NCBI RefSeq assembly: GCF_964194155.1
Contig: NC_135890.1
Span: 90,396,001 to 90,460,000, forward strand
DNA length: 64,000 nt
Reading direction: 5' to 3'
Source of the DNA: Cetorhinus maximus
Taxonomy: Eukaryota
Positions 860 to 64,000 of this stretch are shown here, piece by piece; position 1 is the first letter of the stretch; every line of letters starts with the position of its first letter. The notes beneath the pieces are model-generated. The model saw only the letters and a list, made by a program, of their open reading frames with translations. It searched no databases and was not told the origin of the DNA. A program made the translations under genes and the position numbers.

Positions 860-2590
860 TCACAGAATTTTAACCGCACCGAAGGAGGCCATTTGGCCCA
901 TTGTGTCTGCAGCAGCTCTCCAAATGAGCATTTTGACTTTGTGCCATTGCCCTGCTTTTTCCCCGTGCCCCTGCACATTATCTAAATAGAAACAATCATC
1001 TAATGCCCTTTTGAATGCCTCGATTAAACCTGTCTCCACCACACTTCCAGGCAGTGCATTGCAGACCCAAACCACTCATTGCGTGAAAAAGTTCTCTCTC
1101 ACGTCACATTTTCTTCTTTTGCAAATCACTTTAAATCTGTGCCCTCTTGTTCTTGATCCTTTTACAAGCAGGAACAGCTTCTCCCTATCTACTCTGTCCA
1201 GCCTCCTCATGATTTTGAACATCTCTATCAAATCTCCTCTTAGCCTTCTTCTCTCTAAGGAGAACAATCCCAACCTCTCAAATCTATTCTCATAGCTGAA
1301 GTTTCTCATCCCTGGAACCATTCTTGTAAACCTCTTTTGCACTCTCTCCAATGTTTTCACATCCTTCCTATAATTTGGCACCCAGAACTGCACACAATAC
1401 TCCAGCTGAGGTCTAATGAGTGTCTTATATAAATTCAGTATAATCTCCTTGTTCCTGTAATCTATGCCCCTATTCATAAAGCCCAGGATGCTATATGCTT
1501 TATTAACTGCTCTCTCCACCTGTTCTGCCACCTTCAATGATCTATGCACATATACACCCAGGTCTTTCTGCTCTTGCACCCCCTTCAAAATTTCACACCA
1601 TTATTTTGCATAGTCTGTCCATGTTCTTCCCACCAAAAATGCATCACATCACACTTCTCTGCATTGAACTTCATCTGCCACCTATCTGCCCACTCCACCA
1701 ACTATTCTATGTCCTCTTGAAGTTCTACACTGTCCTCCTCGCAGTTTACAACACTCCCAAGCTCCGTATCATCCACAAACTTTGAAATTGTCCCCTGCAC
1801 ACCAAGATCCACATCATTAATATATATTAGGAAAAGCAAGGGTCCCAATATCAACCCCTGGGGAATTCTGCTACAAACCTTCCTCTGAAAAATATCCATT
1901 GACCATTACTCTCTGCTTCCTATTCTTCAGCCAGTTTTGTATCCCACATTGCTACTGTCCCTTTTTATTCCATGAGCGATAAGTTATCTCACAAGTCTGT
2001 TGTGTGGCACTGTATCAAATGTCTTTTGAAAGTCCATGTACACCACATCAACAGCATTACCCTCATCCACCTTTTCTATTACCTCTTCAAAAAACTCCAG
2101 CAGGTTAGTTAAACACAATTTCCCCTTTAGAAATCCATGCTGGCTCTTCCTTATCAACCCATATTTTTCCATGTGACTACTAATTCTATCCCAAATAATT
2201 GTTTCTAGAAGGGCTCTTAAATGCCCTCTGAACAAGGACAATCAGGGATGGGCAATAAATGCTAGCCTAGCCAGCAACGCCCATATCCTGTGAATGAATA
2301 AAAACAAAGCTTCCCCATCACCGAAGTTTAACTGACTGGTCTGTAATTGCTGGGCTTATCCTTACAACCTTTTTTGAACAAGGGCGTAATGTTTGCACTT
2401 CTCCAGTCCTCTAGCACCTCCCCTGAGTCTAGGGAAGACTGAAAAATTATGGCAGTGCCCCTGCAATTTCTACTCTCACTTCTTTCAATATTCTTGGATG
2501 CATCTCGTTCAGTCCCGGTGCCTTGTCAACTTTAAGTACCAACAGTCTATTCAACACTTCCTCCTTATGAATTTTACATCATTGAATTTT
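860..2590 (-). mobile_element. CR1 LINE ORF2 (reverse transcriptase and C-terminus), decayed and 5'-truncated
   Basis: ORF fragments SQHGFLKGKLCLTNLLEFF, VDVVYMDFQKTFDTVPH, PQGLILGPLLFLIYIND, KFVDDTEL and LYKTLIRPQLEYCVQFW...LERVQKRFTRM are typical CR1 RT motifs. Confidence 0.92.
2212..2308 (+). mobile_element. 3' fragment of the tRNA-derived SINE, inserted in CR1
   Basis: ctcttaaatgccctctgaacaaggacaatcagggatgggcaataaatgc... matches the SINE body/tail junction at about 47190-47245. Confidence 0.8.
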
Positions 2591-11275: not shown

Positions 11276-13663
11276 GTGCTCAGGCTATCATATCATAAAT
11301 TAATTACTGTAATTCTTAATCAACAGTCAGAGAAAGTCATCTTTGTAATATCAAACAATAGATGTGAAAATACACTTTTCATTTTTCAATACAACACTAA
11401 TTTTCTAGAAAGGGTATTAGAATATGCCTGACCGTCCATTCAGACATAAGGAGTTACGAGTAAATTGAGTCTGTTCTTAGTTGGGTTCGTGGATTGAGTG
11501 CCCTATTGTCCAAAGTACTCTCTTAGATGTCGGGTGAGCAGATATGATCAGCTCATCATGCAGAAGGCACACATGCAGCAGCCAACCAGAACGATACTGA
11601 AAGAATCCAGAGTCTCTTCAGCTCTAACTGATTCACATTAGGAAGAAAAGAAGAACCACAATGGATAAGAAAGAATTACTGAGTTCAAATTAGAAGCAAA
11701 CACTTATTTATTCTTGTGAATATAAAGAGTAATTTCTGGTGGGGCAGGGAGTTTCTCTCGTCGGAATTGAAAATATTTGAAATTGAAATAGTTTAAAGTT
11801 AATCCACTTTTCCTCATGTTTCTTTTAATCACACAATATCTGTCACTACCTTGTTTCAAGTATTTTGCTGTGTAAAAGGATGTGGTATGGCAGTGGCCTG
11901 AAATCAAGGCCTGGGTTTTCCTAGGGTAGTGGAATCTCCGAGCACCTTAAAAGAAATGGTAGGCAGGACCCGAATGTGGAAATCCCACCCCCATTTTCGA
12001 CAGATCCCAGTTTCATCAGTAGGGGAAAGGGGTAGGATGTGATTTGCACATGAGGGAAACCCAAACTCGGCAAGGCCATCAGAACTCAATGCTGAGTTCA
12101 GACAGACCCACTTTCGCTGTAGCAAGGGCCTTAACCTGCGGTTTGGAAGTCACAAATTTTTAAGAGGACAGCTCTTGAAGGATGACTAAGGTCTGTAGAA
12201 CTGTCATGATGTTAAGTTATTTACAAATTTAAAAAACAGGCCACCTGTGTCAGCAAGAGTTGAAAAAACTGTTCTAGCAGTTACAACAGCTGTTTGTTGA
12301 CGTTTTCCCAAGGGCTATTGTTATGTCATTACGAATGCTTCGCTGCTTTCCACAAGCTATAAATTATCTCAGCTGGGGGCAGGGGTCCTAAGTTCACAGC
12401 TTGACAGTTTAAAGTCGTGATGAAAGGATTAGTTATCTTTGATATGGGGTTATGAATAGAAGTTTGTTCTCATAAGAGTTTAAGCATTTGAAGAGATTTA
12501 AAAGATTTGAATGGGTTTTCATGAATGGGAGTTTGTTTTAATATAGTGAAGGTTGTAAGAGATATTTATACTTTTATTTTATTTCTTCTCAACATGGCTC
12601 CTGAGGTCTGCCCATGGTGGATACTGGGTGAGTTGTCTTTGAGGGTGCGTATCCGTGCCAAGGGTGGTGGGTGGGTTGGCATGAATTGACATGGCAGCTA
12701 TAAGAGGCCAAGGGGGTGGGTGGGGGGGCAATGGGTTGGCATTAAATCAGCATGGGAGCATGAAAGTGGTATGGGGAATGGGTGGTAGGGTGATGGGGTG
12801 TGAGGGATGAGGGCTAAAGGGTGTAAAATTTAACAAAACAATTGGGGCAAAGAGAACCCAGGTGGGCCTTTTAAACAGCCTGCCTAGGCATTGGGCAACC
12901 TCTGTGGCTGTTTCCGATCCACTTCTGAGAGCGCCGGGCCCCAACTCTGTCCTATACCCGCCTCCCCAGAATGAAAATCGCTCAATCAGCTAGGGAAGAA
13001 ATGGGGATAGAAAGAGAGGAAGATTGAAGGGAGAACATAGTAGGAAAAGGGATTGGAATGAAAATGTCTATGATATTAGTAAACATATATAGGTGTCTGT
13101 GAGGTGCTTTTTATGGCATGTAATGGTACACTAGGCATGTCTATTAATAATCTTATAATGTACCATTGTCTTCTTCCCACAATTTCTTTCAGCTGATTGA
13201 GGTTAGCCTGCAGCTGTTTTGACCTCACCCATGTACTACTAAGTAACAACATTGTAATCAATACAATTTACAACATCATGTCCTTGCTTATAAGATATCA
13301 AGCATTCCTTTGGATACAGGATGGGGGAGGGAGAGATGTTAGTTAAATGTTTGTCACCCTTCACAGCATGCATATTAGCTTTCACTTATGTAAAGGATAT
13401 TCAGTTGTCCCATCAGCAAAGCTAACCAAATGATGACAGTTCTGGTTAGCCACACCGTAAAAATATTATTCAGTATACTGCAGCAGATTCAAATATTTTT
13501 TGTTTAGGCATTTAGTACAGGAAACATTTTTTGCCCTCAAGCTTTTGAGCTTCATCGGGTAGAATTATTATAAAATCAGGGAGATCCTATAACATGGGCT
13601 TTAGATTACAATGCCTGAATCACAATTTTTAGTACTCAAGTGGTACAGTCAATTCACTGTTCT

Positions 13664-14446
13664 CCTCTACATTGGAGAGACTAAACGCAGACTGGGTGAC
13701 CGCTTTGCGGAACACCTTCGGTCTGTCCGCAAGCATGACCCAGATCTTCCAGTCGCTTGCCATTTCGACACACCACCCTGCTCTCATGCCCACATGTCCG
13801 TCCTTGGCCTGCTGCAATGTTCCAGTGAAGCTCAACGCAAACTGGAGGAACAACACATCATCTTCTGATTAGGCACTTTACAGCCTTCCGGACTTAACAT
13901 TGAGTTCAACTTCAGATCATGAACTCTCTCCTTCATCCTCACCCCCTTTTTTCTAATAATTATTATATATTTTTTATATGTATTTTTTTCTTTTCCCACC
14001 TATTTCTATTATTATTTTAAAAATGTATTTCCATCCATTGTTTTATCTCCACCTTTTAGCCTATTTCGATCCCTTCCCCACACCCCACCCCCACTAGGGC
14101 CATCTGTCACTTGTTCATCCTGCTTTCTACCCTTAATGTCACCATTAGCACATCCTTTAGTTAATATCACCACCGTCAACATCCCTTTGACCTTTTGTTT
14201 ATGACATCTTTGGCAATCTCCCCTTTGCCTCCACCTATCACTGGCCCTCTATCCAGCTCCACCTGTCCCAACCCCCTTAAACAGCTTATATTTCACCACA
14301 TTTATATTTCTCTTTAGTTCTGATGAAGAGTCATACAGAAACATTAACTCTGTCTTCCTCTCCACAGATGCTGTCAGGCCTGCTGAGTTTTTCCAGCAAT
14401 TTTTGTTTTTGTTTCAGATTTCCAGCATCTGCAGTATTTTGCTTTT
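13664..14446 (+). mobile_element. Penelope-like element, 5'-truncated (GIY-YIG endonuclease C-terminal part plus pseudo-LTR)
   Basis: LYIGETKRRLGDRFAEHLRSV (YIG motif); 13-bp TSD AATTCACTGTTCT at 13651-13663 and 14447-14459. Confidence 0.9.
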
Positions 14447-20063: not shown

Positions 20064-23000
20064 GGGGAGTCAATGGCGTAGTGGCATTGTCGCTGGACTA
20101 GTGATCCAGAGACCCAGGGTAATGCTCTGGGGACCTGGGTTTGAATCCCGCCACAGCAGATGGTGGAATTTGAATTCAATAAAAATCTGGAATTAAAGGT
20201 CTAATGATGATCGTGAAACCATTGTCGATTGTTGTAAAAACCCATCTGGTTCACTAATGTCCTTTAGGGAAGGAAATCTGAGATCCTTACCTGGTCTGGC
20301 CTACGTGTGTCTCCAGACCCACAGCAATTGGTTAACTCTTAAATGCCCTTTGAAATGGCCTAGCAAGCTACTCCGTTGTAACAAACCGCTACAAAAGTCA
20401 CAAAAAAAGGAATGAAGCTGGACAGACCACCTAGCATCGACCTAGGCACCGGAAACAAAAACGACAATCTCAGCCCCGTCGACCCTGCAAAAGTCCTCCT
20501 TATTAATACCTGAGGGCTTGTGCAAAAGAGAGCTGTCTCACAGACTAGTCAAGCAACAGCCTGACATAGTCATCTTTGCGGAATCATACCTTACAGATAA
20601 TGTCCCAGACATCACCATCACCATCCCTGGGTATGTCCTGTACCACCAGCAGGACAGACCCAGCAGAGGTGGCGGCACAGTGGCATACAATCTGGAGGGA
20701 GTTGCCCTGGGAGTCCTCAACATTGACTCCGGACCCTGTGAAGTCTCATGGCATCAGGTCAAACATGGGCAAGGAAACCTCCTGCTGGTTACCATGTACC
20801 GCCCTCCCTCAGCTGATGAATCAGTGCTCCTCCATATTGAACACCACTTGGAGGAAGCACTAAGGGTGGCAAGGGTGCAGAATGTACTCTGGATGGGGGA
20901 CTTCAATGTCCACCACCAAGAGTGGCTCAGCAGCACCACTACTGACCAAGCTGGCCGAGTCCTAAACGACAGAGCTGTTGACTGGGTCTGTGGCAGGTAG
21001 AGGGGGAACCAACAAGAGGGAAAAACATACTTGACCTCATCCTCACCAACCTACCTGCCGCAGATGCATCTCTCCATGACAGTATTGGTAGGAGTGACCA
21101 CCGCACAGTCATTGTGGACATAAAGTCCCTGCTTCACACTGAGGATACCCTCCATTGTGTTGTGTGGCACTGCCACCATGCTAAATGGGATAGATTTCGA
21201 ACAGATCTAGCAACTTACAACTGAGCCTCTACGAGGCGCTGTGGGCCATCAGCAGCAGAACTGTGCTTGAACACAATCTGTAACCTCATGGCCCGGCATA
21301 TCCCCCACTCTGCCAATACCATCAAGCCAGACGATCAACCCTGGTTCAATGAAGAGTGCAGGAGGCCATGCCAGGAGCAGGAACAGGCATACCTAAAAAT
21401 GAGTTGTCAATCTGGTGAAGCTATAACACAGACTACTTGCATGCCAAACAGCATAAGCAGCAAGTGATAGTTGGGTGATCACTTAGCCCTGTCTAACGGA
21501 TCAGATCTAAGCTCAGCAGTCCTGCCACAACCAGTCATGAATGGTGGTGGACAATTAAACAACTCACTGGAGGACGAGGCTTCACAAATATCCCCATCGT
21601 CAACGACGGAGGAGCCCAGCACATCAATGCAAAAATTAAGACTCAAGCATTTGCAACAACCTTCAGCCAGAGATGCCAAGTGGATGATCCATATCGGCCT
21701 CCTCCGGTGGTTCCCAGCATCACAGATGCCAGTCTTCAGCCAATTCGATTTACTCCACATGATATCAAGAAACGGATAAAGGCACTGGATAATGCAAAGG
21801 CAATGGGCCATGACAATATTCTGGCAATACTACTGCAGACTTGTGCTCCAGAACTTGCTGCGCACCCTAGCCAAGCTGTTCCAGTACAGCTACAACACTG
21901 GCACCTACAAATCAATGTGGAAAATTGCCCAGGTATGTCCTGTACACAAAAGGAGGACAAATCCAACCCAGCCAATTCTGCCCCATCAGTCTACTTTCAA
22001 TCATCAGTAAAGAAATGGAGGGGAGTCATCAACAGTGCTATCAAGCGACACTTGCTTAGCAATAACCTGCTCACTGACGCCCAGTTTGGGTTCCACCACA
22101 GCCATTCAGCTCCTGACCTCATTACAGCCTTGGTTCAAACATGGACAAAAGAGCTGAACTTCCAAGGTGAGGTGAGAGTTACTGCCTTTGACATCAAGGC
22201 AGCATTTGATAGTGTGACATCAAGGAACCCTAGCAAATCTGGAGTCAATGGGAATCAGGGGGGAACACTCCGCTGGTTGGAGTCATACCTAGCACAAAGG
22301 AAGGTGGCTGTGGTTGGTGGAGGTCAGTCATCTCAGCTCCAGGGCACCACTGCAGGAGTTCCTCAGGGTAGTGTCCTTGGCCCAACCATCTTCAGCTGCT
22401 TCATCAAAGACCTTCCTTCCATCATAAGGTCAGAAGTGGGGATGTTCGCTGATGATTGCACAATGTTCAGCACCATTCGTGATTCCGCAGATACTGAAGC
22501 AGTCTATGTCCAAATACAGCAAGACCTGGACAACATCTAAGCTTGGGCAAGTAACATTCGTGCCACACAAGTGTCAAGCAATGACCATCTCCAACAAGTG
22601 AGAATCCAACCATCGCCCCTTGATGTTCAATGGCATTACCATCACTGAATCACCCACTATCAACTTCCTGGGGGTTACCATTGACCAGAAACTGAACTGG
22701 ACTAGCCATGTAAATACTGTGGCTACAAGAGCAGATAAGAGGCCAGGAATAGCGCGACGAGTAACCCGCCTCCTGATCCCCAAAGCCTCTCCACCATCTA
22801 CAAGGCACAAGTCAGGAGTGTGATGGAATACTCTCCACTTGCCTGGATGAGTGCAGCTCCCACAACACTCAAGAAGCTTGACAACGTCAAGCACAAAGCA
22901 GCCCGCTTGATTGGCACCAAATCCACAAAACATTCACTCCCTCCACCACTGACGCACAGTAGCAGCAGTGTGTACCATCTACAAGGTGCACTGCAGTAAT

Positions 23001-23334
23001 TCACCAAGGATCCTTCGACAGCACCTTCCAAAGCCACAACCATTACCATCTAGAAGGACAAGGGCAGCAGATACATGGGAACACCACCAGCTGCAAGTTC
23101 CCCTCCAAGTCACTCACCATCCTGACTTGGAAATATATCGCCGTTCCTTCACTGTTGCTGGGTCAAAATTCTGAAACTCCCTTCCTAACAGCACTGTGGG
23201 TGTACCCACACTACATGGACTGCAGCGATTCAAGAAGGTAGCTCACCACCACCTTCTCAAGGGCAATAGGGATGGGCAATAAATGCTGTCCCAGCCAGCG
23301 AAGCCCACACATCCCAGGAATGATTAAAAAAAAA
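20064..23334 (+). mobile_element. Full-length single-ORF CR1-group LINE (APE + RT) with a tRNA-derived SINE head; ORF disrupted
   Basis: SINE head at 20064-20355. ATG at 20412 leads into APE (KVLLIN..., KQQPDIVIFAESYL, MYRPPS, MGDFNVHH, ILDLILTN, SDH). RT motifs QFGF, DIKAAFDSV, GVPQGSVLGPTIFSCFI, MFADD. A-rich tail ends at 23334. Confidence 0.92.
20074..20148 (+). promoter_or_regulatory. RNA polymerase III internal promoter (A box and B box) at the head of the LINE
   Basis: A box TGGCGTAGTGG 20074-20084 fits TRGCNNARYGG. B box GGTTTGAATCC 20138-20148 is GGTTCGANNCC with a CpG transition; the SINE copy near 47035 retains GGTTCGAAT. Confidence 0.75.
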
Positions 23335-26162: not shown

Positions 26163-27277
26163 GGGGAGATGGTGATATAGTGGTAATGTCACTGGATTAC
26201 TAATCCAGAGGCCCAGCCTAATGCTCTGAGGACATAGGTTCAAATCCCACCTTGGCATCTGGTGGAATTTAAATTCAATTAATAGATCTGAAATACATAA
26301 TGATGACTGACCATGAAATGCGGTTTCCTCTACATTGGCGAGACCAAACGCAGACTGGGTGACCGCTTTGCGGAACACCTTCAGTCTGTCCTCAAGCATG
26401 ACCCAGACCTCCCTGTTGCTTGCCATTTCAACACTCCACCCTGCTCTCATGCCCACATGTCCGTCCTTGGCTTGCTGCATTGTTCCAGTGAAGTTCACAC
26501 AAACTGGAGGAACAGCACTTCATCTTCCGACTAGGCACTTTACAGTCTTCCGGACTGAATATTGAGTTCAACAATTTTAGATCATGAACTCTCTCCTCCA
26601 TCCCCACCCCCTTTCCGATCCCCCTTCTTTCCAATAATTTATATAGATTTTTCTTTTCCCACCTATTTACATTATTTTTAAATATATTTCCATCCATTGT
26701 TTTATCTCTACCTTTTAGCCTATTTCGATCCCTTTCCCCCACCCCACCCCCACTAGGGCTATCTGTACCTTGCTCGTCCTGCTTTCTACCCTTAATGTCA
26801 CCTATTAGCACATTTCTTAGCTAATATCACTGCCGTCAACACCTCTTTGTCCTATGACATCTTTGGGGAATCTCCACCTATCACTGGCCCCCTTTCCAGC
26901 TCTACTTATCACCCCCCCCCCCCCCCCCCCCCCGCCACCCCCACCATCCCCAACCCCCTTAAACCAGCTTATATTTCACCTCTCTTCTGTTGAAGAGTCA
27001 TACGGACTCGAAACGTTAACTGTGTTCCTCTCCGCAGATGCTGTCAGACCTGCTGAGTTTTTCCAGGTATTTTTATTTTTGTTTTTATCATGAAATATCA
27101 TTAATTGTCATAAAGACCCATCTGGTTCACCAATTGCATTTGGAGAAAGAAATCTACCATTCTTACCTTTGGTTGACTTAACTGTCCTCTGAAATGTTTG
27201 GTTTGAAGGCAATTAGGGATGGACAACAAATTCTGGCTTTGTCAGTGACATCTACATCCCACAAAAGAATAAAAAAA
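26163..27277 (+). mobile_element. tRNA-derived SINE interrupted by a Penelope insertion
   Basis: Head ggggagatggtgatatagtggtaatgtcactgga...ggttcaaatccc; body resumes at 27089 (cccatctggttcac) and ends in a ggcaattagggatggacaacaaa tail. Confidence 0.8.
26320..27088 (+). mobile_element. Penelope-like element, 5'-truncated
   Basis: FLYIGETKRRLGDRFAEHL; 8-bp TSD CATGAAAT at 26312-26319 and 27089-27096; internal poly-C at about 26912-26933. Confidence 0.9.
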
Positions 27278-28219: not shown

Positions 28220-28547
28220 TCACCATCTACAAAATGCACTGCAGAAACTCACTGAGGCTCATTAGGCAGCACCTTCCAAACCCACGACAACTACCATCCA
28301 GAAGGACAGGGCAGCAGATACATGGGAACACTACCACCTGGAAATTCCCCTCCAAGCCACTCACCATCCTGACTTGGAAATATATCGCTATTCCTTCACT
28401 ATCCCTGGGTCAAAACCCTGGAACTCCCTTCCTAACAACACTGTGAGTGTGCCTACACCACAGGGACTGCAGCGGTTCAAGAAGGCAGCTGACCACCACC
28501 TTCTCAAGGGCAATTAGGGATGGACAATAAATGCTGGCCTAGCCAGC
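28220..28547 (+). mobile_element. 3' fragment of the SINE-headed LINE family
   Basis: Colinear with about 22975-23300 (HCRNSLRLIRQHLPNP... through to the tail). Confidence 0.85.
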
Positions 28548-33555: not shown

Positions 33556-35317
33556 TGGAGGAGGATGCTGCACAAGTATCCCCATCCTCAAACACGGGTG
33601 AGCCCAGCACGTCATTGCAAAAGATAAGGCTGAAGCATTTACTACAATCTTCAGCCAGAAATGCCGAGTGGATGATCCATCTCAGCTTCCTCCAGAGGTC
33701 CCCAACATCACAGATGCCAGTCTTCAGCCAATTCGATTCACTCCACGTGATATCAAGAAACGGCTGAAGGCACTGGATACTGCAAAGGCTATGGGTCCTG
33801 ACAATATTCCGGCAATAGTACTGAAGACTTGTGCTCCAGAACTTGCCGCACCCCCAGCCAAGTTGTTCCAGTACAGCCACAACACTGGCATCTACCCAGC
33901 AATGTGGAAAATTGCCCAGGTATGCCCTGTACATAAAAAACAGGACAAATCCAACCTGACCAATTACCGCCCCATCAGTCTATTCTCAATTATCAGTTAA
34001 GTGATAGAAGGGGTCATCAACAATGCTATCAAGCGGCACTCACTTAGCAATAACCTGCTCACTGACGCTCAGTTTGGGTTCCACTAGGGCCACTCAGCTC
34101 CTGACCTCATTACAGCCTTGATTAAACATGGACAAAAGAACTGAGCTCCAGAGGTGAACTGAGAGTGACTGCCCTTGACATCAAGGCCCCATTTGACCGA
34201 GTGTGGCATCAAGGAGCCCTAGCAAACTGGAGTTATGGGAATCAGGGAGAAAGCTCTCCGCTGGCTGGAGTCATACCTAGCACAAAGGAAGATGGTTGTG
34301 GTTGGGAGGCCAATCATCTCAGCTCCAGAACATCACTGCAGGAGTTCCTCGGCATTGTGTCCTAGGCCCAACCATCTTCAGCTGCTTCATCAATGACCTT
34401 CCTTCCATCATAAGGTCAGAAGTGGGGATGTTCGCTTATGATTGCACAATGTTCAGCACCATTACCGACTTCTCAGATACTGAAGCAGTCCATGTCCAAA
34501 TGCAGCAAGACCTGGACAACATCTAAGCTTGGGCTGACAAGTGGCAAGTAACCTTTGCGCCACACAAGTGCCAGGCAATGACCATCTCCAATAAGAGAAA
34601 ATCTAACTATCTTCCCTTGACACTCAAATGCATTACCATTGCTGAATCCCCCATTATCAATAACCTGGGGGGTTACCATTGACCAGAAACTGAACTGAAC
34701 TAACCATGTAAATACTGTGGCCACAAGAGCAGGTGAGAGGCTTAGAATCCTGTGGCAAGTAACTCACCTCCTAGCTCCCCAAAGCCTGTCCACAATCTAC
34801 AAGGCACAAGTCAGGATGAGTACAGATCTAACTTGTCTGGATGAGTACAGATCTAACAACACTCAAGAAGCTTGACACCATCCAGGACAAAGCAGTCCGC
34901 TTGATTGGCACCACATCCACAAACATTCACTCCGTCCACCACTGACGCACAGTGGCAGCAGCGTGTACCATCTGTCAGATGCACTGCAGGAACTCATCAA
35001 GACTCCTTAGACAGCACCTTCCAAACCCATGACCGCGAGCATCTAGAAGGACAAGGGCAACAGATAGATAGGAACACCACCACCTGCAAGTTCCCCTCCA
35101 AGCCACTCACCATCCTGACTTGGAACTATGTCATTGTTCCTTCACTGTCGCTGTGTCAAAATCCTTGTACTCCCTCCCTAACAGCACTGTGGGTGTACCT
35201 ACACCACTTGGACTGCAGCGGTTCAAGAAGGCATCACTTTCTCAAGGGCAACTAGGGATGGGCAATTAATGCTGGCCTAGCCAGCAAAGCCCACATCCCT
35301 TGAATTAATAAAAAAAA
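33556..35317 (+). mobile_element. 5'-truncated copy of the SINE-headed LINE family (RT region)
   Basis: Colinear with about 21570-23334; KAMGPDNIPAIVLKTCAPELAAP, NYRPISL; same tail. Confidence 0.92.
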
Positions 35318-36615: not shown

Positions 36616-37067
36616 TACTCTATGTACTGTATGTTATATAAAAATAATATAGTATGCCCTTATTCTTATTTACCTATATAACAGATTATTTAATGCAATT
36701 CAAATCCTTTAATGTTGGTATCCTCTACTTAGTTAATTTTAATCCCTTAGATCTAATTAATTACCCTGATTGTTTTATATTTACTGTTCTCCCTTCATTT
36801 AAATTACTTAACATCTCCTTTCCCTCTGTACCTAATTCACATTGTCACTCTGTATTAAACGATTGCATTTTGCAGATTCACCCAGCTCTATGCTTTAGCA
36901 GATATTTCTCTGATATATATCTTTTAGAAACACACTAGTTATAACTGGTCAGTCAACTGTCAGCCACAATAAGTAATATCTAGTCAGGGATCCTCTTAGA
37001 GCTTAACTGTCACTGACTTGCAGTATTTACCTAAAGTAATGAAGTAAGAAAACTAGGTTAAACTTAA

Positions 37068-38126
37068 ATAAAGACAGAAAATGCTGGAAAAACTCAGCAG
37101 GTCTGATGGCATCTGTGCATAGGGAAACAGAGTTAGCGTTTTGAGTCTGCATGACTCTTCAGAGCTAAAGAGAAGCAGAAATGTGATGGAATTTATACTG
37201 TTTAAGTGGGGGTGGAGCAGGTGAAGCTGGATAGAAGGTCAGTGATAGGTGGTGGCTAAGGGGAGATTGACAAAGATGTCGTGGACACAAGACAAAGGGT
37301 GTGTTAATGGTGGTGGTAAGGACTAAAGGTGTTGATAGTGGCATAATGATAATGCAGAACGTGTGAATAGCAGAACAAGGGTCAGCACTCTGTGAAGGAA
37401 CAACATGGAATAAATAACAGATGGCCCTTTTGGGTGTGAGTGGGAGGGAGGGGGCGGTGGTTGGGGAAAAAGGATAAAAAAAGGGATAAAAAAGGGGATA
37501 ATAGGGGATAAACAATGAATAAATGAATAAAAATAAAAATAAGTAAATAAAAATAAATTTTAAAAGGGATTGAAAAAGGGGTGAAGATAGAGAAGAGAGT
37601 TCATGGTCTGAAGTTGTTGAATCCAGTGTTAAGTCCGAAAGGCTGTAAAGTGCCTAATTGGAAGATGAGGTGCTGTTCCTCCAGTTTGCATTGGGCTTCA
37701 CTGGAACATTGCAGCAGGCCAAGAACGGACATGTGGGCATGAGAGCAGGATGGTGTGTTGCAATAGCAAGCAACAAGAAGGTCTGGGTCATGCTTGTGGA
37801 CAGACCAAAGGTGTTCTGCAAAGCGGTCACCCAGTCTGCGTTTGGTCTCCTCAATGTAGAGGAGACCGCATTGGGAGCAGCAAATGCATTGGACAAAATT
37901 GAAGGAGGTGCAAGTGAAGCACTGCTTCACCTGAAAGGAGTGTTTGGGCCCTTGGATGGCGAGGAGGGAGGAGGTAAAGGGGTAGGTGTTGCACCTTCTG
38001 TGATTGCATGGGAAGGTGCCGTGGGAAAGGAATGAGGTGTTGGGGGTGATGGAGGAGTGGACCAGGGTGTCCCGGAGGGAATAGTCCCTACAGAATGTTG
38101 ACAGGGGTGGTGAGGGGAAGATGTGT
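37068..38126 (-). mobile_element. Penelope-like element, 5'-truncated (GIY-YIG region plus pseudo-LTR)
   Basis: FTCTSFNFVQCICCSQCGLLYIEETKRRLGDRFAEH; 14-bp TSD TAGGTTAAACTTAA at 37054-37067 and 38127-38140. Confidence 0.9.
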
Positions 38127-44249: not shown

Positions 44250-45240
44250 TTTTTTTTAATTCATTCATGGGATGTGGGCTTCGGTGGCTGGGCCAGCATT
44301 TATTGCTCATCCCTTGTTGCCCTTGAGAAGGTGGTGGTGAGCTGCCTTCTTGAACCGCTGCAGTCCATGTGGTGTAGGTATACGCACAGTGCTGTTAGGT
44401 AGTTCCAGGATTTTGACCCAGCAACAGTGAAGGATGGTGAGTGACTTGGAGGGAAACTCCAGGTGGTGGTGTTCCCATCTATCTGCTGCCCTTGTCCTTC
44501 TAGATGGTAGTGGTCATGGCTTTGGAAGGTGCTGTCGAAGGAGCCTTGGTGAGTTCCTGCAGTGCATCTTGTAGATGGTACACTCTGCTGCTACTGTGCA
44601 TCGGTGGTGGAGGGAGTGAATGTTCGTAGATGATGTGCCAATCAAATGTGCTGCTTTGTCCTGGATGGTGTCAAGCTTCTTGAGTGTTGTGGGAGCTGCA
44701 CTCATCCAGGCCAGTGGGGAGTATTCCATCACACTCCTGACTTGTGCCTTGTAGATGATGGAGAGGTTTTGGCGAGTCAGGAGGTGAGTTACTCGTCGCA
44801 GGATTCCTAGCCTCTGAGCTGCTCTTGTAGCCACAGTATTCATATGGCTAGTCTAGTTCAGTTTCTGGTCAATGGTAACCCCCAGGATGTTGATAGTGGG
44901 GATTCAGTGATGGTAATGCCATTGAACATCAAGGGGCGATGGTTAGATTCTCTCTTATTGGAGATGGCCATTGCCTGACACTTGTGTGGCACGAATGTTA
45001 GTTGCTGCTTGTTAGCCCAAACCTGGATACTGTCCAGGTCTTGCTGCATTTTGACATAGACTGCTTCTGTATCTGAGGAGTCATGAATGATGCTGAACAT
45101 TGTGCAATCAGCAGCAAACATCCCCACTTCTGACCTTATGATGGAAGGAAGGTCATTGATGAAGCAGCTGATGACAGTTGGGCCAAGGACACTACCCTGA
45201 GAACTCCTGCAGTGATGGCCTGGAGCTGAGATGACTGACC
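44250..45240 (-). mobile_element. 5'-truncated copy of the SINE-headed LINE family
   Basis: SQGSVLGPTVISCFINDLPSIIRSEVGMFAAD; IYKAQVRSVMEYSPLAW; tail poly-T at 44250. Confidence 0.92.
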
Positions 45241-45790
45241 TAATGTTTGGGGTCCCCTTATCTAAGGAAATATATAATGGCATTGGAGGCGGCCCAGAGA
45301 AGGTTCACTAGGTTGATTCCTAGTATGGAGGGATTTTCTTATGAGGAGAGGTTGAGTAGGTTAGGCCTGTACTCATTGGAGTTTAAAAGAATGAGAGGCG
45401 ACCTTATTGAAACATATAAGATTCTTAGGGGGTTTGACAGGTTAGTTACTGAGAGGTTGTTTCCCCTTGTGGGAGAGTCTAGGACCAGAGGGCATAATCT
45501 CAGAGTAAGGGGTCGCCCATTTAAAACAGAGATGAGGAGGAATTTCTTCTCTAAGAGGGAAGTTAATCTGTAGAGTTCTTTACTGCAGAGGGCCGAAGAA
45601 GCTGGGTCGTTAAGTATATTCAAGGCAGAGATGGACAGATTTTTAATCAGTAAGGGAATCGAGGGTTATGGGGAAAAGACAAGAAAGTGGAATTGAGGAT
45701 TATCAGATCAGCCATGATCTCATTGAATGGCGGAGCAGACTCGATGGGCCAAATAGCCTACTTCTGCTCCTATGTTTTATGGTCCTTTGG
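45241..45790 (+). mobile_element. CR1 ORF2 C-terminus and 3' end
   Basis: SPYLRKYIMALEAAQRRFTRLIP...YEERLSRLGLYSLE..RMRGDLIETYKIL; CR1 tail. Confidence 0.9.
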
Positions 45791-46688: not shown

Positions 46689-47679
46689 GGGCTGGATTTT
46701 ACCAGGCAATGTATTCTCTGCTCCGCCCATTCCTACCCCCTTCCCCAACTAAAAAGCTGCTATGGGACCTGGTCACCCTGCAGCCATTTTATGCTCAAAG
46801 CTGTGTTAATTGTTTTAAGGTCACGAGTTCCACCACTATCTTGGGAGGAGATCCCGCCTTAAAAAGTGGCCAGTCAATCCGATAGCCTTGCAGCTCTGTA
46901 GTCCCAGCAGTGACAGTTTTGAGCAGTAACCATTGCTAGGACTACAAGCAGTCCCAGAACAGGGGAGGCGGTGGTGGTGGTATTGTCACTGGACTGGTAT
47001 TCTAGAGATCCAGGGTAATGCTCTGGGGAGCTGGGTTCGAATGATGGTGAAATTTGAATTCAATAAAAATCTAGAATTGAAAGTCTGATGATGGCCATGA
47101 AACCATTGCCAATTGTTGTAAAAACCCATCTGGCATTAGGGAAGGAAATCTGTCCCTACCTGTGACTCCAGACCCACAGCAATGTGGTTGGCTCTTAAAA
47201 TGCCCTCTGAACAAGAGTAATTAGGGATGGGCAATAAATGCTGGACTAGGCAGCACAAACAGACGAATAAATAAAGAGGTTATGGAGACAAATTTCAAGG
47301 TAATTCTGGTGTATTGGCAGGCCCTGGCTGGCAGGTCCCATTGAGGAGGCCAGGGCCTGGATTTCAGGGGCTGGAGAAGGATTAAAGGGGGGGCTATGAC
47401 CGTTGAGGGGGTGCCTCCAAGTGGCACACCCAAAGGAGATTCTTCCCTGTTTCCCAACACACCAGCTCAAGCACTAAAAGCTGCCGGGCTCCCCACCTGG
47501 CGTGGGCCTCTCCCTGCCATAGGTAAAATAACAGTGAAGGTGGAATGAGGCACTTAAGCGGCCTCCCCACCCATCATAAAATTGGAGATGGTTGGGGCAG
47601 GTGGGAAGGGTACATTCTACGAGCTTCCCCTGCCACCCCCACCTTCAAACACGCTAGCAGGGGACCATAAATACAGCCC
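46689..47679. mobile_element. PIF/Harbinger-type MITE containing a SINE
   Basis: Imperfect TIRs GGGCTGGATTT / AAATACAGCCC; 3-bp TSD AAG on both sides. Confidence 0.7.
46962..47275 (+). mobile_element. Near full-length tRNA-derived SINE (MetaSINE-like core, recalled from memory)
   Basis: Head plus B box GGTTCGAAT, core aaaaacccatctgg...agggaaggaaatctg, and tail agggatgggcaataaatgctgg shared with the LINE at 20064-23334. Confidence 0.85.
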
Positions 47680-49865: not shown

Positions 49866-50424
49866 TTAGTACTTCCAGGGTGGGTTTTTTGTGACAGAAC
49901 CTGTTGTCTTGGGTTGGTTGGATGAAACAGAATCTGACATACTACCAGGTCTCCACCTATTGTAATGCTGTGGTCCTGAGAGTAAAGTAAAAGCTGAAAT
50001 TGGTCTATACTGCAACTGCTCTGTATTCCCAGCAGTGTATGTGGAATCTGCTTTGACTATTATTTTTCTAGAGTTGTGCATCCTAGTTAAAGACTGTGAT
50101 CGTTCTCGAATAGGGGTATCATTAACAGAGTCACTATCACTGTTTGGCCTCTTCCAGTAATCTGCTTTATCTCTGTATTCAGCGATAAAGTCAGTAGAAG
50201 ATTCTTTTGTGACTGGATAAAGTGGTTTCACTGGATTTCCTTTGGCAGGTGAGAACTGAGAACAAAATTCATTTGAGCTAATTTTCTGTACTGAGGGAGT
50301 CCACAGGAGTGGCCGAATCTTTATTTTATCTTCTTCTGCAGTCCATGGTGCCTCCCAGCCTGGGTCCTCTTGCTTTGAGCCAAAAAGAGACTCGTCACAA
50401 TAGCTGGGCATACGGCATTTTAAC
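49866..50424 (-). CDS. RITA1: RBPJ-interacting and tubulin-associated protein 1, last coding exon
   Basis: Acceptor tttctttaaccaag|G; (R)LKCRMPSYCDESLFGSK...RPLLWTP...RSQSLTRM...KNPPWKY-stop matches the RITA1 motifs PSYCDESLFG, LLWTP and terminal PPWK. Confidence 0.93.
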
Positions 50425-51341
50425 CTTGGTTAAAGAAAAAAATAAAGAGAACATAATATTCAATCAAAGCACAAGACATCAATTTTTTAAAAATTACATT
50501 CTGGCTGCATTAGCTCTGCTTGGGGTCTATTTATTAAGATGGATTGTACTATTGTACATCTGCAATTTTGAAACAATGAGCAAATCTCTTAGCCAATATT
50601 CCAACTGGCTTTTTACTCACATGATACAGAATAAACTTCACTCTTTTGGTTTAAACAGAATGTTTCATGAAAGTGTTCCTTCAGTTCATCTAAAAAATTT
50701 GCTAGCACGATTAAGAACAGATGCTGAACAAACAAAACACAGCTTGGCAAGACTGTTCAACATAACTGGCCTCAAGATATTACAAGATATCAGTACTATG
50801 ACTGAAAGTCGCTAAATTTAAATTGAAACTAATCATGGCTACATAAGTTGAATAAAGAATTATCAATTCAATGGTGCCTTTTGTGTATCACTTTATTGAC
50901 TATTCTGCAGAAATGAAAGCATCTCTTTAAGCTGGATTCATTTCATGATGCTGGAATGTGACAAAACTATTTGGACTTGGCTTTTATATTTTCTAATCCA
51001 AAGAACATTTGATAAATTAAATTTGGTACAAATGATTTAGCATTCTGTTTTTACAAAAAGGTTGTTCTATATTTTTAGATGTACAAATTCTAAAGAAAAT
51101 AAAGACACAAGAACTTGGATATGGCCTGAAAACTGGCACAGGTGTGGCAATGTGCGTTAAATTTTTATTGAATACCAGCTCTACCCATGTTGTTCACTGG
51201 CTGCCTCGATCAATAAGGAGTCAATATTCCAAGTGTTATTGCAACTTAAAGGCAACCATCACCTCCTAAAAGGGAGGTGCACTGTGGCAACAAGTGGTGC
51301 AAGTTTTTTCAAGACTGAATCAGTGCTGTGATACTTTAGCA

Positions 51342-52213: not shown

Positions 52214-53449
52214 CAGGACCACTCAGCTCCTGACCTCATTACAGCCTTGGTTCAAACATGGACAAAAGAGCTGAACTCCCAAGGTGAGGTGAGAGTGACT
52301 GCCCTTGACATCAAGGCAGCATTTGACTGCGTGTGGCATCAAGGAGCCCTAGCAAAACTGGAGTCAATGGGACTCAGGGGGAAAACTCTCCACTGGTTGG
52401 AGTCATACCTACTACAAAGGAAGATGATTGTGGTTGTTGGTGGTCAGTCATCTCTGCTCCAGGACATCATTGCAGAAGTTCCTCAGGGTGATGTCCTCGA
52501 CCCAACCATCTTCAGCTGCTTCATCAATGACCTTCCTGCCATCATAAGGTCAGAAGTAGGGGTGTTTGCTGATGATTGCACAATGTTCAGCACCATTCGC
52601 GACTCCTCAGATACTGAAGCAGTCTATGTCCAAATGCAGCAAGGTTTGGCTTCAGCTGACAAGTGGCAAGTAACATTCGCACCACACAAGTGTCAGGCAA
52701 TGACCATCTCCAACAAGAGAGAATCTAAACATCGCCCCCTTGATGTTCAATGGCATTACCATCACTGAATTCCCAACTATCAACATCCTGGGGGTTACCA
52801 TTGACCAGAAACTGAACTGGAATAGCCATATAAATACTGTGGCTACAAGAGCAGGTCAGAGGCTAGGAATCCTGCAGCATGTAACTCACCTCCTGACTCC
52901 CGAAAGCCTCTTACCATCTACAAGGCACAAGTCAGGAGTGTGATGGAAAACTCCCCACTTGCCTGGATGAGTGCAGCTCCCACAACACTCAAGAAGCTTG
53001 ACACTATCCAGGAAAAAGCAGTCTGCTTGATTGGCACCACATCCACAAACATTCACTCCTTCCACCACTGACTCACAGTAGCAGCAGTGTGTACCATCTA
53101 CAAGATGCACTACAGGAATTCACCAAGGCTTCTTCGACAGCACCTTTCAAACCTACGACCACTATCATCTAGAAGGACAAGGGGAGCAGATAGATGAGAA
53201 CACCACCACCTGGAAGTTCCCCTCCAAGTCACTCACCATCCTGACTTGGAAATATATCGCCGTTCCTCACTGTCGTTGGGTCAAAATCCTGGAACTCCCT
53301 TCCTAACAGCACTGTGGGTGTACCCACACCACATGGACTGCAGCAGTTCAAGAAAGCAGCTCACCGCCACCTTCTCATGGGCAACTACGGATGGGCAATA
53401 AATGCTGGCCCAGCCAGTGAAGCCCACATCCTGTGAATGAATGAAAAAA
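52214..53449 (+). mobile_element. 5'-truncated copy of the SINE-headed LINE family inserted in the Harbinger transposase
   Basis: VRVTALDIKAAFDCVWHQGAL, VFADDCTMF; same tail. Confidence 0.92.
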
Positions 53450-57865: not shown

Positions 57866-58640
57866 TTACGCCGCTCTGGTCCATTCCTCTATCACTCCAA
57901 CATCTCGTCCCCTTCCCTCAGCACCATCCCATGCAATCGCAGGAGGTGTAACACCTATCCCTTTAACTCATCTCTCTTCACCTTCCAGATGAAGCGGCGA
58001 TTTACTTGTATTTCTTTCAATTTAGTATACCGCATTCACTGTTCACAATGTGGTTTCCTCTACTTTGGGGAGACTAAATGCAGACTGGGTGACTGCTTTT
58101 CAGGATACCTTCGCTCAATCCGCAAGCTTGACCCCAACCTTCTGGTTGCTTGCCATTTTAATTCAGCACCTTGCTCTCACGCTCAATTTCTGTCCTTAGC
58201 CTGCTGCAATGTTCCAGTGAAGCCCAACGCAAGCTTAAGGAACAAACTCATCTTCCGATTAGGTACTTCACAACCTTCCGGACTCAACATTGAATTCAAC
58301 AAATTCAGACCATGAACTCTGTCCTCCATTTTGTTTTTTTGCCAAGTGCTAGTCTGTATCTTGTTTTCATGTTTTTGCTTTCAGATAAAGGTATTCTGCC
58401 ATTAACACTTACTCTGGACCAATGCGTTGTTTCTTTACTACAACATTACCATTCCCTTTTCTTTTTGTTCCATGACTTCGTCATTATTTAATCTCTCCCA
58501 CTCTCTAACCCATCCCTGACCTTTTTCAACAGCATAAAACCCATCACATTTTCAACTCTGAACAAAAGTCATATTGGACTTGAAACCTTAACTCTATTTC
58601 TCTCTCCACAGATGCCACCAGACCTGCTGTGTTTTTTTTT
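57866..58640 (+). mobile_element. Penelope-like element fragment
   Basis: PCNRRRCNTY...RFTCISFNLVYRIHCSQCGFLYFGETKCRLGD (Zn-finger-like plus GIY-YIG), GLNIEF; pseudo-LTR tail. Confidence 0.85.
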
Positions 58641-62980: not shown

Positions 62981-63705
62981 ACAGCAGCCATGCTGAAGCT
63001 GATCAAAATTACTTTAAATTTAAGCAAGAATTAAGCAGATCAGAGACACAGCAGCTGAATCTTACTGTGAAGTCCAATGCAGAAAGATGCCATGGGCCCA
63101 AGTATATATTACTTAAAACCCATTTGTTTACACCAAGTTAAAATTGGTCATTTAGTCTTTTTGTCCAGAGAAATTCAGGAATTTGGAGGATAAATTTGAG
63201 GAAAGGTCCAATACTCACTGAGGAAGGCAGAGAGCAAGCATGGTCATGGGATAGGCAGTAGCAGTTTAAACTGCTTAACTTGTACTGAGAACTATAATAC
63301 ACCCATGGGTAAAGTTAGAGGAGCTTAAGCAGTACTAGAGAGGAGATGGGGGAGAAAGAACACAGGTGTCACTCCTCATAGCTCAGCCCTCTCATCCCAG
63401 GAATCAATCTAGTGAACCTTTACACCCCCTTCCAAGGTAAGTGTATCCTTCCTTAGGGAAGGAGCCCAACATTATACACAGTACTCAAGTGCTCTTACCA
63501 AAGTCGTATATAATTGCTGCAAGACTACTTTATTCTTCAAAACCCCTTGCAAGAAAATGGCTAATTTGTCATTTGCTTTCCTAATTACTACCAGCAAGTT
63601 AACTTTCTGTGACTTGTGCACAAGGATACCCAAGTCCCTGTACATACCAACCATGTGCTAGTTGTTCGCCTTTTTAAAAAAAAAAAATTCTGATTTTCCA
63701 TTTGC

Positions 63706-64000
63706 ATATCCCCACTCTACCATTACCATCAAACCAGGGGATCAACCCTGGTTCAATGAGGAGTGCAGAAGGGCATGCCAGGAGCAGCACCAGGCATACC
63801 TTAAATGTGGTGTCAGCCTGGTGAAGCTATAACACAGGACTACTTGCGTGCCAAACAGCATAAGCAGCAAGTGATACACAGAGCTAAGCGGTCCCACAAC
63901 CAAAGGTTCAGATCTAAGCTCTGCAGTCCTGCCACATCCAGTTGTGAATGGTGAATGACAATTAAACAACTCACTGGAGCAGGTGGCTCCAGAAATATCC
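63706..64000 (+). mobile_element. Copy of the SINE-headed LINE family (internal ORF part, runs off the window)
   Basis: Colinear with about 21297-21592 (HIPHSTITIKPGDQPWFNEECRRACQEQ). Confidence 0.88.

Follow-up and report, generated by a model that had tools for sequence, protein, structure and literature searches.

Avoidance of T-runs on the sense strand of an elasmobranch Zenon LINE with a SINE-type head, a candidate for transcription by RNA polymerase III

Runs of T, together with the tested terminators of RNA polymerase III (Pol III), are avoided on the sense strand, and on that strand only, of a LINE family represented at 20064-23334 of the analysed window (64,000 nt of Cetorhinus maximus contig NC_135890.1, positions 90,396,001 to 90,460,000 of the forward strand), and this avoidance is specific to T. 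Judged from its sequence, this element is a dead member of the Zenon LINEs of elasmobranchs (PMC13343379, excerpted text and supplement). The leading explanation is that this Zenon LINE, with A and B boxes in its head, avoids T-runs because Pol III would transcribe the whole 3.3-kb autonomous element, and we regard this explanation as about evenly poised between right and wrong. The T-run pattern in itself is consistent with Pol III transcription and is not diagnostic of it. A first-pass annotation of the window had proposed that the coding sequence was purged of Pol III terminators and that this independently supports Pol III transcription; the avoidance proved real and A and B boxes are present, but the zero count of runs of four or more T (T4) is a weak statistic and one LINE without a visible head (L220) displays the same avoidance.

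A Zenon element with a SINE-type head

The family is represented in the window by the following features.
20064-23334 (+): Zenon-type LINE with a single ORF, present over its full length but broken, 92.4% identical to the 3,291-nt consensus
20064-20160 (+): tRNA-like SINE-type head; intact copies begin at a 5' G-run and have unrelated flanks
20074-20084 (+): Pol III A box, predicted from sequence; fits the box A motifs quoted in the excerpted text of PMC10886601
20137-20148 (+): predicted Pol III B box; one CpG C-to-T change in the window copy, intact in the consensus
20161-20354 (+): SINE body common to the LINE and its partner SINE, putatively of Deu-domain type (label from the description excerpted from PMC5499810); its end marks the point at which the SINE departs from the LINE
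20412-20414 (+): AUG that is conserved and follows an A-rich stretch; in the family its frame differs from that of the long ORF, and only in the window copy does a private additional A near 20489 bring the two into one frame
20493-23268 (+): ORF with APE endonuclease and RT; stops and frameshifts in the window copy, 969 codons open in the consensus, of which codon 285 is the first in-frame Met
23258-23334 (+): 3' tail common to LINE and SINE, with AATAAA signals and a short A-tail
46962-47280 (+): partner SINE, the first ~292 nt of the LINE plus the LINE tail
28222-28547 (+): 3' fragment of the family, no T4
33556-35317 (+): 5'-truncated family copy, no T4
44250-45241 (-): 5'-truncated family copy, no sense T4
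52214-53449 (+): 5'-truncated family copy, no T4
63704-64000 (+): internal piece of a family copy ending at the window edge, no T4

The family has one ORF with APE and RT, lacks ORF1 and carries a short A-tail in its full-length copies, which are the characters of Zenon within the CR1 group. Pfam matches in the window copy fell to PF03372 and PF14529 (APE) and to PF00078 (RT), all of them broken. The elasmobranch Zenon consensuses of Stuart et al. 2026 (CarCar, HypSab, RhiTyp, ScyCan and SquAca; excerpts of PMC13343379) are likewise about 3.3 kb long, without ORF1, with APE and RT and with an A-tail. By eye, the first 400 nt of our consensus are nearly letter-for-letter those of the closest elasmobranch row in the supplement of that paper, and the published consensus measures 3,288 nt where ours measures 3,291 nt. 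The family is one already catalogued as Zenon, as the same excerpts indicate; in the main text of the paper as excerpted, the terms tRNA, Pol III and polymerase III have no occurrences, and the head, the promoter, the missing AUG and the T-run avoidance are not discussed. A quick tree placed the family in a clade separate from the canonical CR1 of this genome with support of 100 (25 rows), no row being a named Zenon; 95 of 98 rows were kept for the quick tree, the Tx1-like outgroup and two others falling below the RT cut.

A search of the animal's own genome (3.99 Gb) with the first 637 nt of the element returned 16,497 candidates. Among the 40 that were scored, the head continued into the ORF in 39 of 39 non-self copies and alignment ran from end to end in one piece in 21 of those 39. 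The family is a single unit of head plus ORF, and its 5' start is fixed. The majority consensus was built from 32 rows, namely the window copy and 31 of the 39 scored copies, and copies are 92-94% identical to it; it contains a single open frame that runs from stop to stop. This consensus has box A at +11 and box B at about +74, and the sequences that flank the first G-run on its 5' side are unrelated among copies. The layout is that of a Pol III type-2 unit: both boxes close to the 5' end, a start about 10 nt before box A and no internal terminators on the sense strand. Neither ARAGORN nor Rfam gave a tRNA match on the window copy; the Rfam tRNA model scored 14.8 bits (E 4.3) on copy L033, below the gathering threshold of 29. 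Preservation of the A and B boxes among copies is not clearly above that of the rest of the element. All six Zenon consensuses from five shark and ray species, inspected by eye over the first 400 nt in the supplement excerpts, start with the head and its A and B boxes and contain no T4 in that interval. Over the same 400 nt the hagfish and coelacanth rows there, also read by eye and with the coelacanth row mostly in low-confidence letters, lack the head and contain T4+ runs.

The partner SINE leaves the LINE at position 291-292 in 28 of 29 loci, and the remaining locus, allowing for a small deletion, is joined at that point too (30 loci were collected and one was removed by a filter). At about 370 nt this derivative answers to the usual description of a SINE as short and non-coding, which the 3.3-kb LINE with its selected ORF does not. 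A SINE is the probable source of the head, which would have been acquired by template switching before the split of sharks and rays. A capped RNA can leave a cap-derived extra G at the 5' end, and this rule is the basis of a comparison of the 5' G-runs in LINE and SINE. The modal G-run was four in both, in 12 of 35 scored LINE copies (38 unscored, and a few duplicated loci included) and in 11 of 23 scored SINE copies (6 unscored), and thus, in what is a weak test, there is no sign of a cap-derived extra G.

The window also contains other features. An exon at 49869-50429 (-) matches Pfam RITA (PF17066, E 3.5e-32) and places a host gene inside the window. A further repeat family occupies 13661-14420, 26317-27084, 37060-38065 (-) and 57876-58332, and its copy at 26317 interrupts an older head-plus-tail SINE (~26165-27275). 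The translation of the repeats at 13661, 26317, 37060 and 57876 resembles what we take to be the GIY-YIG endonuclease of Penelope-like elements.

Avoidance of T-runs on the sense strand

Recounting runs on the sense strand of the window copy (3,271 nt, 21.2% T) gave no T4+, 16 A4+, 12 T3+ and 52 A3+. These values bear out the first-pass counts of no T4+ in the 3.27-kb sense strand and at least 15 A4+, and its further statement that five other family copies of the window are free of sense-strand T4+ also held in every case, the minus-strand copy at 44250-45240 having no A4+ on the plus strand. The longest T4-free plus-strand stretch of the window (3,360 nt) contains the element, and the stretches ranked second and third (2,567 and 1,862 nt) likewise contain family copies. 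The contrast that had been drawn with a CR1 at 860-2590, credited with several sense-strand T4+ runs, stands at eight such runs, one of them inside an inserted SINE tail; this element lies on the minus strand, and the 19 runs of the plus strand are not its sense count. That CR1 fragment (-) is interrupted at 2233-2308 (+) by a 5'-truncated SINE/LINE tail in opposite orientation.

The 32-copy consensus, in which the first-pass annotation had asked for T4 to be counted, contains none. T4-free copies number 13 of 32, and the other 19 carry one to four T4, some of them in tail or flank; the most frequent newly arisen T4 stems from a single CpG site and is found in 21 copies. The significance of the zero depends on the null. 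Under base shuffling it has P 0.012 for the consensus and 0.004 for the window copy, under a first-order Markov null P 0.20 and 0.044, respectively, and P is 0.087 by synonymous permutation, 0.078 by shuffling of codon order and about 0.30 with CpG context held. The first-pass annotation had itself named frequent zero counts in codon-preserving shuffles as a result that would tell against it, and in part this is what was seen: against base shuffles the lack of T4 is more than chance, but 9-30% of codon-preserving shuffles also contain no T4, and zero T4 was rejected as stand-alone proof. Codon nulls are conservative here, as codon usage may itself be shaped: phenylalanine makes up 1.9% of the family ORF, lower than in all 71 relatives described below, with 4 TTT versus 14 TTC codons and no TTA.

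Codon junctions carry the signal much more clearly. Cross-codon TTT is absent where 10.8 were expected (0 of 2,000 permutations) and where 7.4 were expected with CpG context held (0 of 1,500), and NNT|T junctions number 7 versus 25.2 expected, or 18 with CpG context held, so the avoidance of TTT-T codon contexts that had been suggested for checking is confirmed. T occupies the third position of NNY codons in 7 of 55 cases before T versus 56 of 168 before C (Fisher P 0.003) and 52 of 189 before A (P 0.03). Windows with four T in five positions number 1 versus 10.7 expected. Runs of A, C and G are at normal levels in the consensus, which rules out a general avoidance of homopolymers. CpG avoidance as the cause of TT scarcity was also set aside, for it lowers the expectation and the signal remains, and avoidance of splice acceptors was rejected because tracts of eight or more pyrimidines are not depleted (7 versus 4.7 expected).

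Termination has been measured at 65% for TTTT, 50% for TCTTT, 42% for TATTT and 20% for TGTTT, with TTT minor (excerpts of PMC8466645), and a human study, as excerpted, finds four T effective and read-through common (10.1101/2025.10.17.683076). TTTT or TVTTT occurs nowhere on the sense strand and 24 times on the antisense strand of the consensus, and is equally absent from the sense strand of the younger and older subfamily consensuses; the window copy has a private TCTTT at ~20573. Four nulls predict 7.7 (P 0.0007), 3.6 (P 0.013), 4.3 (P 0.0035) and 3.3 (P 0.016) such motifs, the dinucleotide null resting on 150 shuffles. This terminator set was picked after the weak T4 result and about ten related statistics were run, a circumstance that the TTT results survive. 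TT and TTT are avoided as well, and since these cause little termination according to the same excerpts of PMC8466645, termination may be only part of the cause.

Three control LINEs of this genome, with 22-23% T, showed no T-run avoidance: a CR1 consensus (29 copies), the ORF of L120 and a second CR1 consensus (18 copies) contain 8, 16 and 8 T4, respectively. L120, whose clade we presume to be Tx1-like, belongs with L120-L149, a young, near-identical LINE with a 1,303-aa open frame in tandem arrays with a spacing of about 7.3 kb, which by its motifs we take to be Tx1/L1-like. A four-copy CR1 cluster gave a weak signal (224-codon ORF, P 0.03-0.05). A search for Rex1/L2 controls through PF09004 gave no match, and the control genomes were also empty.

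Of 80 relatives from metagenomes 71 were usable, nine without a matching ORF of 250 aa being omitted; a profile-free HMMER search added proteins without DNA. T4 is present in 68 of these 71 and the median ratio for cross-codon TTT is 1.01, each relative being judged only by its own permutations since most have about 30% T. L150, the sole clade-mate with DNA, has 20 T4 and no upstream B box and at 30% T is a poor compositional match. Low-stringency ARAGORN on the metagenome loci produced only noise. The avoidance is rare among the relatives; the exception is L220, a two-ORF metagenome LINE (17% T, 4,685 nt) that has no T4 and no TVTTT on its sense strand and a stronger NNT|T avoidance than the family (Fisher 1.6e-6). 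It has no visible A or B box in a 5' end that is possibly incomplete, and its ORF2 seemingly lacks a nearby AUG. The signature can occur without a visible head, and L220 is either a counter-example or a second case.

The open reading frame and its leader

Purifying selection acted on the ORF in the master lineages that carried the head. Consensuses of older (19) and younger (96) copies, a division in which 125 copies were scored, differ by 46 synonymous and 33 non-synonymous non-CpG changes; both have the head and identical six TTT sites. The dN/dS between them is 0.22, compared with 0.64 for single-copy changes, and the head-bearing lineage therefore made its protein. The search for an older subfamily favoured copies with a common leader deletion, and the deletion cluster was therefore not used. 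Varied small leader deletions just 5' of the endonuclease are seen in L280-L302, a set obtained by a search biased toward such deletions.

How this protein would be translated is less straightforward. Twelve AUGs lie upstream of the endonuclease, none of which opens into the ORF, and the consensus has no in-frame AUG there. The AUG-initiated ORF suggested by the window copy was ruled out because its extra A is private: at the site near 20489, 31 copies have three A and one has four (18 of 50 were unscored by the pattern). An AUG equivalent to that at 20412 is present, by eye, in all six elasmobranch Zenon consensuses of the supplement excerpts. From it, in our consensus, a short frame of about 35 codons (20412-20520) runs past the beginning of the long ORF in a different phase, and the same offset is seen by eye in the ray consensus excerpted there; this overlap is a possible frameshift or re-entry signal. 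In scanned LINE leaders upstream AUGs are expected to be selected against, and non-AUG entry has been raised as a possibility (excerpts of PMC3894237). AATAAA and ATTAAA also occur inside the element, at +115 and +129. The leader folds no better than shuffles (z +1.4 to -1.0) and the element has no Rfam match to a known ribozyme, and a ribozyme or a stable IRES-like fold was rejected on these grounds; with no leader structure above shuffles, internal entry therefore has no support of its own.

Transcription by Pol III and the competing explanations

Under Pol III transcription, TFIIIC would bind the A and B boxes of the head, and Pol III would start at the first G, read through the A-tail and stop at the first T-run of the flank, as in Alu. 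Its transcripts would include the 3' tail only if the 3.3 kb before it were free of terminators. Masters gaining TTTT or TVTTT would yield truncated RNA without the 3' recognition tail and leave no progeny, and selection would in this way have removed T-runs. The uncapped RNA would be translated without scanning, either by internal entry at a non-AUG codon or by a shift from the conserved out-of-frame AUG, and the protein would use target-primed reverse transcription to copy the RNA that encodes it as well as that of the SINE. The full picture, that of a protein-coding retrotransposon that is autonomous, transcribed over its whole length by Pol III, translated without cap or AUG, recoded against Pol III stops, using a SINE body as its leader and spread through sharks and rays, we put forward tentatively, as falling somewhat short of even probability. 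Pol III processivity is held to limit transcript length (PMC10886601, as excerpted), which counts against Pol III transcription of the whole element. The absence of ORF1 is no evidence for Pol III, because all Zenons described in the excerpts of PMC13343379 lack it. Assembled contigs from four runs presumed to be RNA (four organisms) cover 30 of 30 bins of the element, with depth falling toward the 5' ORF; such contigs show neither starts nor strand and are therefore silent on promoter use.

The strongest competitor, a serious one that we nevertheless consider clearly less probable than transcription by Pol III, holds that the captured head is or contains a Pol II promoter, that its boxes are relics, and that T-runs are avoided for RNA surveillance, export or codon-pair bias, in some headless LINEs as well. 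L220, in which no head is visible, fits this proposal, as do the reach of the avoidance down to TT and the AATAAA and A-tail, which are compatible with Pol II processing; LINEs are moreover generally regarded as Pol II units (excerpts of PMC5786205 and PMC10886601). Against it, the avoidance is rare in the relatives and missing from the three well-sampled genome controls, the boxes persist across the sharks and rays of the excerpted Zenon consensuses, polyadenylation-type motifs stand at +115 and +129, the AUGs before the ORF do not open into it, and the 5' G-run is not shifted relative to that of the SINE, weak though this last test is.

An arrangement with two RNAs, in which the head gives rise to a Pol III template RNA and the protein is supplied in trans from Pol II RNAs (host read-in or another master), would account for the boxes and the T-run avoidance without translation of an uncapped RNA, and it accommodates an element that has neither an in-frame AUG nor a detected leader structure. 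It appears improbable to us, since a dN/dS of 0.22 in a lineage copied with its head is most simply maintained by cis-preference, and when the genome was searched with a diverged protein of the clade, all 17 distinct loci examined, a lower bound, belonged to this family. The absence of any selection on T-runs, with low T content (20%), CpG avoidance and protein sequence sufficing, agrees with the passage of zero T4 through codon-preserving nulls but is largely refuted and very improbable, because cross-codon TTT and NNT|T keep their significance when protein, codon usage and CpG context are all held constant and because controls of similar T content show no avoidance.

Known systems approach parts of this arrangement. 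The DeuSINEs SacSINE1 and LmeSINE1 of sharks, skates and chimaera have a tRNA-like head, a conserved body and a LINE-derived tail, the layout of the local SINE (excerpts of PMC5499810 and PMC3747384). As excerpted there, DeuSINEs are non-coding and have only the tail in common with the partner LINE L2-2_CM, whereas here the LINE shares head, body and tail; the likeness to SacSINE1 is one of layout. The Persaeus SIDE of the lepidopteran Zenon is, like the present SINE, a short element made from both ends of a Zenon LINE, but it is described in the excerpts of PMC6740152 as without tRNA homology or a Pol III promoter. The TRIMp3 elements Cassandra, Helenus and Ajax are retrotransposons with Pol III promoters derived from small RNAs, as proposed here, but they are non-autonomous, of LTR type and 311-1,263 bp long, and PMC10886601 argues, in its excerpted text, that any autonomous partner has to rely on Pol II. 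Pol III RNAs of the Alu type, which encode their A-tail, are mobilised in the absence of ORF1; this would fit an element lacking ORF1 as a matter of compatibility and not of evidence, and Alu, unlike the 3.3-kb coding element, is short and non-coding (excerpts of PMC2666806).

The working rule holds that LINEs are Pol II and SINEs Pol III units and that the RNAs made by Pol III are short and not translated (PMC10886601 and PMC5786205, as excerpted). Among the titles and abstracts returned by searches of open-access literature, none described a Pol III-transcribed autonomous LINE. If the preferred explanation of Pol III transcription is true, a natural 3.3-kb Pol III mRNA would break the rule that ties LINEs to Pol II and would serve as a model for translation independent of both cap and AUG. 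The SINE and its LINE share both ends, and the pair would then offer a test for the role of conserved SINE bodies such as Deu, for which the excerpted text of PMC5499810 lists three unproven models.
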